Assembly (NCBI GenBank): GCA_016207115.1
Contig: JACQQI010000026.1
Coordinates: 1-61,188 of the forward strand
Length of the DNA: 61,188 bases
Reading direction: 5' to 3'
Source of the DNA: Candidatus Nealsonbacteria bacterium
GTDB taxonomy: Bacteria > Patescibacteriota > Minisyncoccia > Minisyncoccales > GWA2-46-15
Of this stretch, positions 30,939 to 37,060 are shown one piece after another. The notes under the pieces are model-generated. The model was given only the letters and a program-made list of their open reading frames with translations, had not been told where the DNA came from and searched no databases. Each line of letters begins with the position of its first letter. Position 1 is the stretch's first letter. The position numbers and the translations under genes are program-made.

Positions 30939-32654
30939 TTAAGGCTTGAAGAAACCTCGAAGCCGAGCCAAGGGCCAACAATTAATGATGTCGGCGGGTT
31001 CGGCCCAGCCTCGCCGGGCCTGAGCGATGCCCAGGTCGATAAATTTCATCTGCTCCTTGGCGTGAGAATCGGTGCTGATGACCATTTTGACACCTGACTC
31101 CCCGGCGCGACGGATGTTGGCGTCTTTCAGGTCAAGCCTCTCCGGAGAAGCGTTGATCTCCAGGACGGTTTTTGTTTCTCGGGCGGCCCTCAAAATCGAG
31201 TCGAAATCGATCTGATACTCGTCGCGCCTCTGTAAAAGACGGCCGGTCGGATGAGAAATGATATCCACGTGAGGATTTCTCGTGGCCCGGATCAAGCGTC
31301 GAGTCATCTCGGCTTTGGCCATCTTAAGGCTGGAGTGGACTCCGGCGATGACGAAATCCAGTTTAGCCAGGGCGCTGTCTTTAATGTCGATGGAGCCGTC
31401 GTTCAAAATGTTGGCTTCGCAGCCCTGCAATATTTGGAATCTGTAGAATTTCGCGTTTAACTTATCGATTTCTTTCCGCTGTCTCAAAAGCTGTCTTTCG
31501 TCCAAGCCTCGTTCGATTTTTAAAAACTGAGTGTGGTCGCTGATTCCGAGGTAGTGATAGCCTCTCTTTTGGGCGGCCCGAGCCATTTCTAAAATCGTGT
31601 TCCGGCCCCCGTCCCAGTCAGAGTGGCAGTGGAGATCTCCCTGAATCTCTCCGTAGCCGATGATGCGCGGCAGCTGTCCTCGCTGGGCCGCCTGGATTTC
31701 TCCCTGGTTTTCTCTCAATTCGGGCTCGATCAACGGCAATCCCAGGGCGCGATAGACATCTTCTTCACTTTGGCTGGCGATCATTCTTCGGCCACGAAAA
31801 AGACCGTATTCGTTGAGCTTGAGCCCTTTTTCCAGGGCCAGTTTTCTGGTCAGAATGTTGTGCTCCTTGGAGCCGGTAAAATACTGAAGAGCGGCGCCGT
31901 AACTCTCTCGAGGCACGATTCTCAGATCAATGTCGATCCCCCGCCTCAGCCGGATAGAGGCCTTGGTCGTGCCTTGTCCCCAGACCTTAACGACACCCGG
32001 CAGGGTGACGAAAAAATCGACGACTTTTCGCGGGTTCTGACTGACGACCAGAATGTCGGCGTCGCCGATCGTTTCTTTGCGCCGCCTCAGTGATCCGGCC
32101 AGGCTGATCCTCTCTACCTCTTTCAGCTCTCTGAGTTTAAGCATCATTTCCTCCGTCTCGGGCAAAATTTCCCCCAACAAAAAACGACCGGATTGGCGCC
32201 GTAAAAATTCCAGGCCCTGCAGGATGTTCTTTTCTGTTTTCTCGCCGAAATTGGCCAGGGCGCGGATTTTTCCCGCCCGCGCCGCCCTTTCCAGGTCTTT
32301 CGGGTTTTTTATCCCCAGGCGAAGATAGAGTTCTTTGATAGTTTTTGGCCCGATGCCTTCGACGGCCAGCAGTCCGGCCAAATCAACCGGCATCTTTTTT
32401 CTGAGCTCGCGATAGTATTTGATCTGGCCAGTTTTCAGGTACTCCTCGATTCTCTCGGCCAAAGTTTCCCCCACGCCCGGAATCTTCTTTAAGCCAGCGA
32501 CGCCCTCTTTTTGATAGATCTGCGCGACATCCTGCTCTAAGGCTTCCAGGGCCAAAGCCGCCTTCTCGTAGGCCTGAGGTCGGAAGGCAATGTCGTCCAT
32601 TTCGAGGAAGATGGCGATTTCAGAAAAGATTTTGACCAATTCCTGGTTCTTCAT
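30939..32654 (-). CDS. polX: Family X DNA polymerase with C-terminal PHP domain (PolX)
   Basis: HhH N-terminus (GVGETLAERIEEY, GIGPKTIKEL), GSLRRRKETIGDADILV nucleotidyltransferase motif and PHP GDLHCHSDWDGG. Start set at MKNQELVKIF (ATG 32654). The longer track ORF start merely translates repeat D. Confidence 0.85.
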   Translation of the reverse strand: MKNQELVKIFSEIAIFLEMDDIAFRPQAYEKAALALEALEQDVAQIYQKEGVAGLKKIPGVGETLAERIEEYLKTGQIKYYRELRKKMPVDLAGLLAVEGIGPKTIKELYLRLGIKNPKDLERAARAGKIRALANFGEKTEKNILQGLEFLRRQSGRFLLGEILPETEEMMLKLRELKEVERISLAGSLRRRKETIGDADILVVSQNPRKVVDFFVTLPGVVKVWGQGTTKASIRLRRGIDIDLRIVPRESYGAALQYFTGSKEHNILTRKLALEKGLKLNEYGLFRGRRMIASQSEEDVYRALGLPLIEPELRENQGEIQAAQRGQLPRIIGYGEIQGDLHCHSDWDGGRNTILEMARAAQKRGYHYLGISDHTQFLKIERGLDERQLLRQRKEIDKLNAKFYRFQILQGCEANILNDGSIDIKDSALAKLDFVIAGVHSSLKMAKAEMTRRLIRATRNPHVDIISHPTGRLLQRRDEYQIDFDSILRAARETKTVLEINASPERLDLKDANIRRAGESGVKMVISTDSHAKEQMKFIDLGIAQARRGWAEPADIINCWPLARLRGFFKP

Positions 32655-32667
32655 TTCCTTTTTATTA

Positions 32668-32749
32668 TATAGCGAAGACGATATATCGGGCAATTCTGCC
32701 CGCTATAGCGGGCGGTACGCCGCCCGATATATCGCTTCGCGCTATAGCG
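32668..32749. repeat. Family-1 repeat, copy D: two inverted units sharing a central CGCTATAGCG
   Basis: TATAGCGaagaCGATATATCGGGCaattctGCCCGCTATAGCGGGCGGtacgCCGCCCGATATATCGcttcgCGCTATAGCG. Confidence 0.85.
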
Positions 32750-32804
32750 GTTACGACAATTAAAAAACCCGCTCGCCGGCGGGAAAAGTTTCTCCGACAA
32801 TCTC

Positions 32805-33449
32805 CTAATCTCGGGCGGGAAACTCTTTGGCCAGAGCTTCCATGAACTTAATCAAAACCGGCTCGTCGATTCTTTCTTTTGAGCCAACCCACCAAGATTT
32901 GTAAACGCGGATCTTTTCTTCTCGACCATACTCCAAAGCCTGAAGAAGAGCCTCTAAACGATTAATTTGTTTGACGAACCTGGCCTCTTTGGTCAAACCT
33001 TTTTCGTATTCGGACCAGCTGCCCTTGATTTCTTTCTGGATGGCTCGAGGTAGGCCCTGAAGTAACCTATCAATGGCTTTTCCCTCTTGCTTGTATTTCT
33101 GTTCGACTCGTCTCTTTTTCTCCTGAGCCGTCAGCCGGGGCCAGTGATCAAACAGTTCCGGCCACTTCTTTTTGTCCTGGGGCAGAATCGTTTTGTGGTC
33201 GTAAGGGCTCTTGTCGCCGGTGTAGAGTTCGCAGAGATCATGAACCAAAGCCATCTCTAAAACCTTGGTCATGTTCAAGTTCCCATTTTTCTCCCGGCCC
33301 AAAACTAAAGTCATGAGGGCCGCGCGGAAAAGGTGGTCGGTGATTGAAGAGGGCGATTTCGAGCCGATCAGCACGCCGCCCCGCCGCAAGACCTTCCGCA
33401 GCCGGCCGGCTTCGGTGAAAAATCGAATGAAAGGCTTCATTTCTCCCAT
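32805..33449 (-). CDS. HD-domain phosphohydrolase (YfbR-like 5'-nucleotidase type)
   Basis: 214 aa. SITDHLFRAA and VHDLCELYTGD metal-binding HD motifs. Confidence 0.7.
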   Translation of the reverse strand: MGEMKPFIRFFTEAGRLRKVLRRGGVLIGSKSPSSITDHLFRAALMTLVLGREKNGNLNMTKVLEMALVHDLCELYTGDKSPYDHKTILPQDKKKWPELFDHWPRLTAQEKKRRVEQKYKQEGKAIDRLLQGLPRAIQKEIKGSWSEYEKGLTKEARFVKQINRLEALLQALEYGREEKIRVYKSWWVGSKERIDEPVLIKFMEALAKEFPARD

Positions 33450-33451
33450 CT

Positions 33452-33919
33452 CTAGTACTTAATCTTTTTTATCTTATAGACGATCTTCGGATTGACGCCG
33501 ACGACGACTTCGTCGCCCACCCTGTGCCCCATCAAGCCCCTCCCAACCGGACATTCGTTGCTGATCCGGCCCAGAGAAGGGTTGGCTTCGAGACTACCGA
33601 TAATCTCCAGCTCATCGGTCTCGCCGTCGATCTCCACCATTACCTTAGCCCCCAAACCGACGACGCCCTGTTGGTCTTTGGCTGGAAGCTTAATCAATTG
33701 GACGTCCTTTAAGATTTCCTCGAGTTCGATGATGCGCGCATCTAAGAGGTCCATGTCTTCCTGGAAAGCCAAAAACTCCGGATTGATATCCTCGGAGTGA
33801 AAGATTCGCGGTGATTCGCCCCTGGTTTTAAAAACCTTGAGCCGTAAAAGTTCAGTGAATTCTTTCTCCAATCTCGCCCTCCCCTCCTTGGTCAGGAAAA
33901 ACTTACCCCGGTTACCCAT
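33452..33919 (-). CDS. greA: Transcription elongation factor GreA/GreB family
   Basis: 155 aa. N-terminal coiled-coil (LTKEGRARLEKEFTELL) and a C-terminal ISNECPVGRGLMGHRVGDEV. Confidence 0.8.
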   Translation of the reverse strand: MGNRGKFFLTKEGRARLEKEFTELLRLKVFKTRGESPRIFHSEDINPEFLAFQEDMDLLDARIIELEEILKDVQLIKLPAKDQQGVVGLGAKVMVEIDGETDELEIIGSLEANPSLGRISNECPVGRGLMGHRVGDEVVVGVNPKIVYKIKKIKY

Positions 33920-34130: not shown

Positions 34131-34262
34131 TTATCTGCCAAAAGATTGCCTTCTTTTCGCGTGGCAGTCTCGACAGAAGATGTCGCGACCGGGCGAGGGC
34201 TCAAAGGGGAGTTCGGTGATCTTGGCTCCGCACTCGGAGCAAGCCCAGTCCCCTTGATACAT
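34131..34262 (-). CDS. CxxC-x17-CxxC zinc-ribbon mini-protein
   Basis: Hand translation: MYQGDWACSECGAKITELPFEPSPGRDIFCRDCHAKRRQSFGR. A possible GTG start at 34307 adds (M)FQKFDPAGRGFERK. The pattern C-x2-C..PF.P...R...C-x2-C matches the family common in CPR genomes. The track ORF 34037..34294 is a different frame. Confidence 0.65.
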   Translation of the reverse strand: MYQGDWACSECGAKITELPFEPSPGRDIFCRDCHAKRRQSFGR

Positions 34263-34561: not shown

Positions 34562-37060
34562 TCAGAAGAGGCTCTTTTGCTTGCTAATTATTTTTTGTTC
34601 TCCCTGGTTAAAAATTCTGACCCGGCCGTAGAGGCCGTCGTAGCCGGGTTCGATTACCAATCGACCCTCTCTGACTCGAGAAATACCTTCGGCAATTTCG
34701 GGTAGAGTTAGGGCGGTCAGATCAGAGAGACTGGCTTCAGTCAAAATGCTGAACTCGCTGCCCATCTTTTTGATCAAACTATGATATTCTTCCTCAACTT
34801 TCTTGGCGCCCGGCAACAAACCCAGGGCCTCGGCGATGATCTCTTCCAGGGGCACCAGGCTTTTGAAAGGGATTCTCCCGACGGGACTCGAACCTTCGGG
34901 CCGATCCGCCAATTCCTCAACCCGGCTCAGAACGCCGATAGTCAAAGATTTGCCGCAGACCGGGCAGGTTCCGCCAGATTTCTTTGTCTGTTCGGGTGAG
35001 AAGGAAACTTGACAAAGCCGATGACCGTCGTAATGGTATTTGCCCTCTTCGGGAAAAAACTCGATGGTATAAATCAGCTTCAGGTTCTGGCCCATCTTCT
35101 TGATAGCCTTAATGACCTCGGGATAGCTCAGGGCCGCACCTTCAAAAACGTTGGCTTCCCGGCCAATCTTTCGGAGCGAGTGAGAATCGCTATTAGAAAT
35201 CAGGGTGTATTGGTCGAGCGCCGAGAGCCGCCAATTCATCTTCGGATCTGAGGATAAGCCCGTTTCCAGGGCGAAAATGTATCTCGAATAATCCTCGAAG
35301 CACTCTTCGACCGAGTCGAATCCCGACTTGGAACCGAAGACCGAGAACCACGGAGTCCAGCAATTATGGACGGTGGCGAATTCGGTAATATAAGAATTGT
35401 CTTCTTTTACCTCTAGATTAAAAACGTCACCGCGATAACTATTTTTATCTATATTTCTGACCGGCAGGTAGATATAATTTTCATCTATCCAGCCGTTTTT
35501 TCTGATGGTTTTGTAATTTGATTGCGCAAACTCCTTTTCCCTCAAGAGATTAAATTTATCCTCGAAGAAAGATAATCTTGAGAACATGAATAAATCGTTA
35601 TTCGCTGAAATCTTTCTTCCATTTATGAAATGCCTACCTCGTTTTTCATACTGAGCTCTAGTATTAACGTTGATTGACGGTACCACGCCTAACCGCAAAA
35701 GAATAATCTTCATCTGGTTCATCAATGTCCGAGAAACTGTCGAACCGTGGTCTCCACGCCACCATCCCCGGAAGATTTCCACCTGTTTTTCTAACGGTAA
35801 TTCCAACATCCAGGTCGGCAGCATTTTCGAATGGGCCTTTTTATCAGACAAACTGTAGAATAAATGACCAAAAGCGTTGTATAAAATCTTTGAAAAATAA
35901 ATAATCTCGACTCCGCCGACGCCTTCCTTTTGGACAATCCGGCTTGGCTCAATGTCAAATATTTTTTTCATCAAAGACTGGAGATCGGCGATATATTCTT
36001 TTTCTCTATCAGAAAAACAAAATGCGATTGCGTCGCGATTATTAGTATAACCCTCAGATAAATAGTAGCCGACTAAACGACAAAAATCTTTGTCAACCGT
36101 TATCGCTTGAGGCAACCAAGTAACCTTAAAACCAATGGGGGCAATTTTATTTTCTTTAAATTTGATCGGGATCGGATTAACAACTTGAGTCAAATCCAAA
36201 AACTCTTGATCTTTAATGTTCCGGAATCGCGGAAATAGTAAAATATCCCCGATCTTGATTTTATCGGCCGGAATCCATTGCGGTTTTGTTCCTCGAAAAT
36301 ATTCCCGTTTTAGTTGCTCGCCATAATAATTAGATTGTCCCTGATAACAGTCGTTCCGCATAGCCAAATAGGGATGTTCAGGAGTTGTGGCCAAACCCAA
36401 CCTGAAGTAAGACGGTCTAATCGTATAAATCAAGCCGTGATATGCTCTCTTGAGAACGTTTTCTACTCTTTTTGTCTTTCCGGTATGCGTGTAGACAAAA
36501 TCACCGATTTTAATATCCTTAATCTGTCTCATGCCGGTTTTAGAATGAATATAGGCATCGGGCAACAAGCAATGCGCCGGCACGACGACCGAGGCGGGCG
36601 AGAGCTGAAGAATGATTTTGGTCAATTCTTTAGCGTCGATTCCCAAGATCGGCCGGCCATCCGCCTTCAGATTACCCACCCACTCGAGCCGAGAATTGAT
36701 CTTTTCTACCGACTCCAGGCTAGGAGAAATGACCAGGAGGTGAATCTTGCGCACGCGATTGTTTTTGCTGTAAATGCAGCTGATTTCGGTCGTCAGGATG
36801 AAGCGAGTTCCTTCGGCTCCCGCGCCGAAACCATTGTTGATTTTCGCTCGCGTTTTTGGCTTTAATTTAAAAAGACCGGGCTCGGCCGGTTCTAGTCCTT
36901 CTTTTAATTCTTTAAACCAAACGGGATGAGTGAAGTCGCCCGTGCCCAAAAGACTGATACCCTTAACGCTCGCCCACCTGGCCAGATTCTCAAGATTTAT
37001 CTCTTTAGAAGTGGCGCGGGAAAAACGAGAATGAATATGAAAATCGGCGACGAATTTCAT
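34562..37060 (-). CDS. endoQ: Endonuclease Q (PHP-domain, TIGR00375-like) interrupted by an intein
   Basis: 832 aa. Extein N-terminus MKFVADFHIHSRFSRATSK...LLGTGDFTHPVW. Extein resumes at CWTPWFSVFGSKSGFDS. C-terminal zinc motif CPVCGK. The extein total of 429 aa fits EndoQ size. Confidence 0.65.
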   Translation of the reverse strand: MKFVADFHIHSRFSRATSKEINLENLARWASVKGISLLGTGDFTHPVWFKELKEGLEPAEPGLFKLKPKTRAKINNGFGAGAEGTRFILTTEISCIYSKNNRVRKIHLLVISPSLESVEKINSRLEWVGNLKADGRPILGIDAKELTKIILQLSPASVVVPAHCLLPDAYIHSKTGMRQIKDIKIGDFVYTHTGKTKRVENVLKRAYHGLIYTIRPSYFRLGLATTPEHPYLAMRNDCYQGQSNYYGEQLKREYFRGTKPQWIPADKIKIGDILLFPRFRNIKDQEFLDLTQVVNPIPIKFKENKIAPIGFKVTWLPQAITVDKDFCRLVGYYLSEGYTNNRDAIAFCFSDREKEYIADLQSLMKKIFDIEPSRIVQKEGVGGVEIIYFSKILYNAFGHLFYSLSDKKAHSKMLPTWMLELPLEKQVEIFRGWWRGDHGSTVSRTLMNQMKIILLRLGVVPSINVNTRAQYEKRGRHFINGRKISANNDLFMFSRLSFFEDKFNLLREKEFAQSNYKTIRKNGWIDENYIYLPVRNIDKNSYRGDVFNLEVKEDNSYITEFATVHNCWTPWFSVFGSKSGFDSVEECFEDYSRYIFALETGLSSDPKMNWRLSALDQYTLISNSDSHSLRKIGREANVFEGAALSYPEVIKAIKKMGQNLKLIYTIEFFPEEGKYHYDGHRLCQVSFSPEQTKKSGGTCPVCGKSLTIGVLSRVEELADRPEGSSPVGRIPFKSLVPLEEIIAEALGLLPGAKKVEEEYHSLIKKMGSEFSILTEASLSDLTALTLPEIAEGISRVREGRLVIEPGYDGLYGRVRIFNQGEQKIISKQKSLF
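35363..36571 (-). mobile_element. Intein (403 aa) with LAGLIDADG homing-endonuclease domain
   Basis: Residues 164-566: CLLPDAY (block A), TTPEHPY (block B TxxH), LVGYYLSEGYT and FRGWWRGDHGS (two LAGLIDADG-type motifs), VFNLEV...ATVHN followed by +1 Cys (blocks F/G). It is inserted between PAH and CWTPW of the PHP active-site region. Confidence 0.85.

Follow-up and report, generated by a model that had tools for sequence, protein, structure and literature searches.

A class-1 LAGLIDADG intein in the endonuclease Q gene of a Candidatus Nealsonbacteria bacterium, an allelic relative of the Mja hyp1 intein

What is the insert of 403 amino acids (aa) that interrupts a homolog of endonuclease Q (EndoQ) in a Candidatus Nealsonbacteria bacterium, and does it behave as a mobile element? 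The gene lies on the minus strand of contig JACQQI010000026.1 (GenBank assembly GCA_016207115.1), within a stretch of 61,188 nucleotides that was analyzed as a whole and is called the window hereafter; positions are those of the window unless a contig is named. An original prediction, made from the sequence alone, had read the insert as a LAGLIDADG intein splitting the metal-site region of EndoQ in a bacterium resembling those of the candidate phyla radiation (CPR), a description of the host that fits its 476-kb genome and the Patescibacteria and Parcubacteria names of its relatives. We consider it very likely that the insert is a canonical class-1 splicing and homing intein, lodged in EndoQ directly after the zinc ligand H163.

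The insert, its host gene and its known relatives

The predicted coordinates of the insert and the length of 429 aa calculated for the extein proved exact. The features of the interrupted open reading frame (ORF) are the following.

34562 to 37060, minus strand: EndoQ precursor ORF, 832 aa plus stop, with the intein in frame and a match to TIGR00375
36572 to 37060, minus strand: N-extein, residues 1-163, ending in VVVPAH and holding the PHP ligands H8, H10, E92, H107 and H163
35363 to 36571, minus strand: class-1 intein (C1 ... HN), 403 aa, precursor residues 164-566
36569 to 36571, minus strand: Cys1, the first nucleophile (block A, CLLPDAY), invariant in 123 of 123 homologs
36368 to 36388, minus strand: block B, TTPEHPY (T63-x-x-H66), with T226, E228, H229 and P230 of the precursor invariant
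35552 to 36106, minus strand: LAGLIDADG homing-endonuclease domain, about intein residues 156-340, from Pfam LAGLIDADG_3 and structure matches
36044 to 36076, minus strand: LAGLIDADG motif 1, LVGYYLSEGYT, with acidic E173 (Glu kept in 122 of 123)
35741 to 35773, minus strand: LAGLIDADG motif 2, FRGWWRGDHGS, with acidic D274 (Asp kept in 122 of 123)
35363 to 35425, minus strand: blocks F and G, VFNLEVKEDNSYITEFATVHN (VFNLEV..DNSY..VHN), ending in H402-N403 (His and Asn invariant in 123 of 123)
34562 to 35362, minus strand: C-extein, residues 567-832 plus stop, beginning at the +1 Cys (35360 to 35362) of CWTPWF

The insert runs from CLLPDAY (from residue 164) to ATVHN (to residue 566) and is followed by CWTPWF, the junction residues of the precursor being C164 on one side and H565, N566 | C567 on the other. 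All motifs previously quoted (TTPEHPY, LVGYYLSEGYT, FRGWWRGDHGS and VFNLEV..DNSY) were located in it. The residues expected of a splicing element (C1, T63, H66, H402, N403 and C+1) are invariant in 123 of the 123 homologs, and both acidic residues of the LAGLIDADG motifs are kept in 122; with canonical junction residues of such constancy, the insert is not a native domain devoid of splicing residues. Neither stops nor frameshifts occur in the intein, and its GC content is 38.8%, against 50-51% in the flanking parts of the EndoQ gene. Pfam LAGLIDADG_3 was matched with 27.8 bits, above the cut-off of 22.5, and a sequence search of solved structures retrieved PI-PkoII (2cw7, E 2e-7), with LVGYYLSEGY of motif 1 aligned to LLGYYVSEGY. 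Together with the ungapped extein alignment described below, the profile match and the invariant residues go far beyond chance. The spliced junction peptide would be VVVPAHCWTPWFSVFGSK, and the matching insert-free junction DNA is GTGCCGGCGCATTGCTGGACTCCGTGGTT. With its C1, the TxxH of block B, the terminal HN followed by C+1, a precise in-frame insertion and a Hedgehog/intein (HINT) fold, the element is a class-1 intein, and with both acidic-tipped helices and the alpha/beta fold present, its endonuclease domain is of the two-motif, monomeric LAGLIDADG type.

The fold was addressed with an AlphaFold2 model of the intein, for which ten inteins from the loci gathered here served as alignment input (mean predicted local distance difference test score 88, predicted template modeling score 0.87). 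The best Foldseek matches in the PDB were all endonuclease-bearing inteins, namely TliVMA (E 6e-20), PI-PkoII, PhoVMA, PI-SceI and PI-PfuI, followed by free LAGLIDADG enzymes (I-DmoI, I-Tsp061I), mini-inteins and the hedgehog HINT domain. The model thus supports folding of the insert as a HINT domain plus a LAGLIDADG endonuclease. The two-domain fold is the same in TliVMA (7qss, 7qsu), PhoVMA (7qst), PI-PkoII/TkoII (2cw7), PI-SceI (1vde) and PI-PfuI (1dq3), with Foldseek E values of 6e-20 to 3e-11 and template modeling scores of 0.5-0.67 against the window model. These solved inteins differ in their hosts (V-ATPase, DNA polymerase, ribonucleotide reductase) and in their unrelated target sites, and are just 10-16% identical to the window intein.

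The host had been taken for an EndoQ homolog, and this identification stands. The spliced extein, 429 aa after removal of the intein from the 832-aa ORF, matches NCBIfam TIGR00375 with E 2e-56, and its residues 5-414 align to residues 5-383 of Pyrococcus furiosus EndoQ (PfuEndoQ; 5zb8, 7k30) with E 1.8e-53. The junction is ungapped in this alignment (window vPAH-CWTPWfsvf, Pfu gPAH-AFTPWtsly); PfuEndoQ has no intein, and carries Ala where the window protein has the +1 Cys (PDB 5zb8, 7k30-7k33). The PHP ligands of PfuEndoQ (H8, H10, E76, H84, H139, D193 and H195) are all kept in the extein, where H8, H10, E92, H107 and H163 correspond to Pfu H8, H10, E76, H84 and H139. The C-extein also holds an NSDSHS motif, a Cys/His zinc-ribbon region and a C-terminal QKSLF; in the homolog alignment, D625 and H627 of NSDSHS are invariant, as are H676, H680, C699 and C702. 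Both the PHP-type metal ligands and the C-terminal Zn-binding domain of EndoQ are therefore conserved in the window protein, and from its sequence the host gene looks like a member of the EndoQ/TIGR00375 family, intact apart from the insert. In PfuEndoQ, E76, H84 and H139 hold the catalytic Zn, and the H139A substitution abolishes activity (review citing structural papers, PMC8307549). H163, the residue just before the insert, aligns with H139, and the PHP metal site is therefore split, as had been proposed for this conserved region. No characterized EndoQ from a CPR bacterium was found in the literature searched.

The C-terminal QKSLF (34565-34579, minus strand; Q828, L831 and F832 invariant in 23 homologs) looks, from its sequence, like a beta-clamp-binding motif. 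Bacterial EndoQ homologs have such a motif where archaeal ones have a PIP box (PMC4858679), and the window protein, with its bacterial, clamp-binding-like end, differs in this from PfuEndoQ, which has the archaeal PIP box (PMC4858679).

The one correction to the original prediction concerns novelty, since an intein in EndoQ is not unusual: the insertion point is that of the known Mja hyp1 intein and is common in public data. More than 4,700 homologs were retrieved from public proteins. The best 120 of these are mostly 814-892 aa long with the same domain architecture, and come from Patescibacteria, Omnitrophota and one entry labeled archaeal (Njordarchaeales); one is named 'Mja hyp1 intein'. 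A scan of genome contigs for related loci returned CPR, Omnitrophota and DPANN only. When the intein itself was the query, about 5,700 cluster representatives matched at E <= 1e-3, and the best ~20 of them mostly did so at the EndoQ site, at about residues 130-165 of proteins of ~820-890 aa. Inteins of 30-37% identity were found in other hosts (thioredoxin-reductase-like oxidoreductases, a PAPS-reductase-domain protein, the PolD small subunit and a glycosyltransferase/methyltransferase). The same intein-only search yielded P0133, an EndoQ of Thermococcales type with an extein nearly that of PfuEndoQ (GPAH|C...HN|CFTPW) and an intein stretch 41% identical to the window intein. Used in turn as a query, P0133 led to the Thermococcus litoralis protein EHR78075.1 ('Mja hyp1 intein') and to a Methanocaldococcus cluster that includes AAB98023.1 / Q60348, 'Uncharacterized protein MJ0043; Contains: Mja hyp1 intein'. 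The accession AAB98023 is that of the Methanocaldococcus jannaschii EndoQ homolog (PMC4858679).

The window intein (1-403) is homologous over its full length to the MJ0043 intein (1-392), with 36% identity (BLASTP, E 9e-84), and the exteins, which belong to the same host family, are 34% identical (E 1e-70). The insertion point is the same (GPAH|C...HN|CFTPW in MJ0043, VPAH|C...HN|CWTPW in the window), and so is the architecture, with HINT and LAGLIDADG domains, C1, TxxH, HN and C+1. The two differ at the +2 residue (Phe in MJ0043, Trp in the window), in the 4-Cys insert that follows block B in Mja hyp1 but is missing from the window intein, and in their hosts, a hyperthermophilic methanogen and a small-genome CPR bacterium, respectively. 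The MJ0043 intein occupies residues 129-520, that is 392 aa, a length that agrees with the 392 aa of its InBase entry, 'Mja Hyp-1'; the EndoQ site has been catalogued in M. jannaschii since the 1990s. The precomputed Pfam label of the host domain is itself 'MJ0043_C'. The EndoQ of T. litoralis DSM 5473 (EHR78075.1), from an archaeal, hyperthermophilic host, carries its intein at the same site (...LIGPAH|CVPPD...TLHN|CFTPWTALY, against GPAHAFTPWTSLY in Pfu), and its close relative P0133 keeps the 4-Cys insert; since the extein is nearly PfuEndoQ, the intein site is tied directly to the characterized enzyme. Sequence comparison thus makes the window intein an allelic relative of Mja hyp1 and not a new kind, an ordinary example of a catalogued intein site that raises no new question about inteins in EndoQ. 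Discussion of an EndoQ intein was not found in the literature searched on EndoQ, MJ0043, TIGR00375 and CPR inteins.

Filled and empty alleles and the history of the intein

Intein-free alleles in related genomes, which had been suggested as a check, are indeed present. Forty related genomes were searched with the spliced extein and 30 have EndoQ; in 25 of these 30 it is contiguous and insert-free, in ORFs of ~415-440 aa. The insert-free genomes include G004 and G001, the latter a congener whose EndoQ shares 79% identity with the spliced extein. The flanks of the insert are thus contiguous in intein-free homologs, in line with the ungapped PfuEndoQ alignment. An insert at the same position was found in three relatives, G005 (same genus), G024 and G040, and the remaining EndoQ matches were G006, with no insert at the PAH|C site, and one contig-end fragment. 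The residue after PAH is always Cys in filled alleles, and is C, A, V, I or L in 13 alleles that are empty here (12 insert-free alleles plus G006). The DNA of the insertion site is well conserved among alleles, that of G004 being GTGCCGGCTCAT|TGCTGGACGCCTTGGTT. Promoter, terminator and Rfam scans around the EndoQ gene revealed nothing relevant.

The EndoQ of G006, also of the same genus (L018, G006:C31:13000-17500), holds another intein at ETGLS|SDP (CYDPETEVL...PVWCGN|SDPKMNW), in which Gly replaces the His before the terminal Asn; one TAG lies inside the C-extein match.

The extein tree intermingles filled and empty alleles, even inside the genus-level clade, with P0006 (filled) and G001 (empty) as sisters, and likewise P0002 (filled) and G004 (empty). 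The window intein clusters with those of P0002 and G005 on the intein tree; P0006 is the nearest filled extein to the window, yet its intein sits in a different deep clade. The history of the intein is partly independent of that of the host gene. L107, the contig on which P0002 lies, shows synteny to the window (radical SAM, LOG, two small ORFs, EndoQ, GreA, HD, PolX); its GC content is 38%, and that of the window genome 51%. Between the two, the inteins are 85% identical in DNA, with a synonymous divergence (dS) of 0.75, a nonsynonymous divergence (dN) of 0.075 and a dN/dS of 0.10 (0.08 in the endonuclease, 0.13 in the splicing part), and the exteins are 69% identical, with saturated synonymous sites and a dN of 0.175. 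This identity step coincides with both intein junctions. The GC content at third codon positions (GC3) of the intein is 0.42 in the window and 0.40 in L107, that of the extein 0.60 and 0.375, respectively. The most economical reading is that a lower-GC relative passed the intein to the 51%-GC lineage of the window once that lineage and the one of L107 had diverged, and that both intein domains have been under purifying selection since then. An active or recently active selfish element, as originally proposed, is consistent with this patchy occurrence, with the conflict between the trees, with the younger synonymous divergence and with the dN/dS of ~0.1.

At large scale, the intein and extein trees concur in separating Euryarchaeota, DPANN and bacteria, and this agreement gives no sign of a recent transfer between bacteria and archaea, a possibility that was considered and dropped. 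As regards P0048 ('Candidatus Njordarchaeales archaeon'), its extein and intein both nest inside Patescibacteria on the trees, which suggests mis-binning; its contig is probably a CPR fragment and not the source of an Asgard gene.

Several observations weigh against a canonical, recently mobile intein and should be set beside the above. Pfam Intein_splicing was matched with E 9e-8 but with 32.5 bits, slightly under the cut-off of 35.8. Most site-a inteins, Mja hyp1 among them, have kept a 4-Cys insert behind block B, which the sublineage of the window has lost; a Cys-free RNDRYxGxSNYYGEQLK replaces it (12 sequences, one clade), and this replacement loop (intein residues 77-87) is modeled with low confidence. 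The approximately unbiased test that rejects uniting the window and P0006 inteins (p 2e-50) concerns a group picked after the identities were seen. Other inteins of the same genome, those of DnaE and Xer (see below), are also lower in GC3 than their hosts, and composition alone is therefore weak evidence of recent arrival. Finally, a dS of 0.75 makes the shared intein ancestor younger than the host-gene split, but not recent in absolute terms.

Proposed splicing and homing, and the alternatives

If the insert is a splicing and homing intein, the 832-aa precursor would be unable to form the PHP metal site, the intein parting H163 from the rest of the fold. HINT-catalyzed splicing would proceed through an acyl shift at C164, transfer to C567, cyclization of Asn566 aided by H565, and a shift to a peptide bond, and would yield two products, an EndoQ of 429 aa joined as ...VPAH-CWTPWF... 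and the free intein of 403 aa. The free LAGLIDADG domain, with E173 and D274, is predicted to cleave insert-free EndoQ alleles at GTGCCGGC(N)CAT|TG(C)TGGAC(N)CC(N)TGGTT, and the cut empty allele would then be repaired with copying-in of the intein gene, i.e., homing. This particular intein is probably functional, splicing and DNA cleavage both being inferred; cleavage has indirect support in the dN/dS of 0.08 of the endonuclease and in the patchy, tree-incongruent distribution. The locus provides a clean natural case of the homing cycle among small CPR genomes, one genus containing filled sites, empty sites and a second-site intein, with the intein younger than its host gene; the element could also yield a new rare-cutting endonuclease or splicing domain.

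The most serious alternative is an intein that still splices, EndoQ having to work, but whose endonuclease is inactive. On this view the homing cycle has reached its decay phase, and the element is now passed on vertically. That the window sublineage has lost the 4-Cys insert would suit such decay, and the large-scale agreement of the intein and extein trees points to a history that was largely vertical or among close kin. We nevertheless find this unlikely: the endonuclease is more constrained than the splicing part (dN/dS 0.08 against 0.13), the catalytic acidic pair is conserved, as are the glycines of the motifs, stops and frameshifts are absent, the intein is younger than the flanking gene in the comparison with L107, and intein lineages have replaced one another within the genus-level clade.

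It may also be asked whether the host has domesticated the intein and uses it to its own benefit as a post-translational switch of EndoQ, for example with a disulfide between C1 and C+1 or a stress signal delaying splicing. Cys residues at both junctions could form a redox trap, in keeping with general knowledge of conditional protein splicing, and the intein adjoins a catalytic metal ligand, so that the precursor should be inactive (PMC8307549). By contrast, 25 of the 30 close relatives with EndoQ do without the intein, conservation of the endonuclease is predicted of a selfish element and is not needed by a switch, and the data hold no hint of regulation; we regard domestication as very improbable. 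Better supported than such a switch is competition for the one EndoQ site, within a CPR genus-level clade, between two deep intein lineages, with and without the 4-Cys insert, which replace each other by homing.

A native accessory domain of an EndoQ subfamily, or an assembly or gene-fusion artifact, was rejected and is scarcely credible, the Intein_splicing score just below the Pfam cut-off being the sole weak point that it could exploit, in view of the precise in-frame insertion relative to the contiguous genes of 25 insert-free relatives and to the ungapped PfuEndoQ, the invariant junction residues, the intein fold, and the presence of the same element on many independent contigs and in complete Methanocaldococcus and Thermococcus genomes.

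Annotation, other inteins and neighboring genes

The proper annotation of the gene is an intein-containing EndoQ, neither a fusion nor a hypothetical protein. In the EndoQ/TIGR00375 family, public gene models are often wrong. Over positions 2-134 of the TIGR00375 profile, the last 140 residues of the intein score 42 bits, more than the 27 bits of the true N-extein, and the profile has probably absorbed intein sequence. RefSeq models named 'TIGR00375 family protein', of 424-459 aa, stand beside full 785-aa Methanocaldococcus proteins, and these short models probably start inside the intein. Among the longer EndoQ homologs, P0027, P0062, P0064 and P0090 (1193-1340 aa) have room for two inteins, and in P0304-P0312, P0316 and P0318 (1030-1330 aa) the EndoQ C-terminal domain (PF27218, MJ0043_C) is fused to UvrD/PcrA-type helicase domains.

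The same genome (G000) contains further LAGLIDADG elements. DnaE (Pol III alpha), a 1500-aa frame on the minus strand of contig C19, holds a LAGLIDADG intein of 435 aa (match C19:7795-8022; YGFNR|CLTGDTV...NDIFVHN|SHSCSYA), with a GC3 of 0.54, against 0.66 in its host gene. A XerC/D-like tyrosine recombinase, a 747-aa frame on the minus strand of contig C3 (LAGLIDADG match C3:11185-11328), has its catalytic HTLRH|SFAT box split by an intein of 421 aa (TPHTLRH|CLHPST...GIISHN|SFATDLL); recombinases of this kind are less familiar as intein hosts, and this one may deserve separate attention. A free-standing 252-aa ORF with two LAGLIDADG motifs (C10:3935-4690, plus strand) is possibly an intron-encoded or rRNA-insertion endonuclease, and a weaker LAGLIDADG-like ORF lies at C16:5576-6880.

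Downstream of EndoQ, the window contains the following genes.

33452 to 33919, minus strand: GreA
32805 to 33449, minus strand: HD/YfbR-like 5'-deoxynucleotidase
30939 to 32693, minus strand: PolX with a PHP domain

The order of these three genes (30939-33919) is conserved in L107, and the proximity of PolX to EndoQ would fit a nick-and-fill repair route. The 640-nucleotide gap between EndoQ and greA holds an uncalled 43-aa ORF, MYQGDWACSECGAKITELPFEPSPGRDIFCRDCHAKRRQSFGR (34131-34262, minus strand), of CxxC...CxxC zinc-ribbon type, which is conserved in the same gap of L107.

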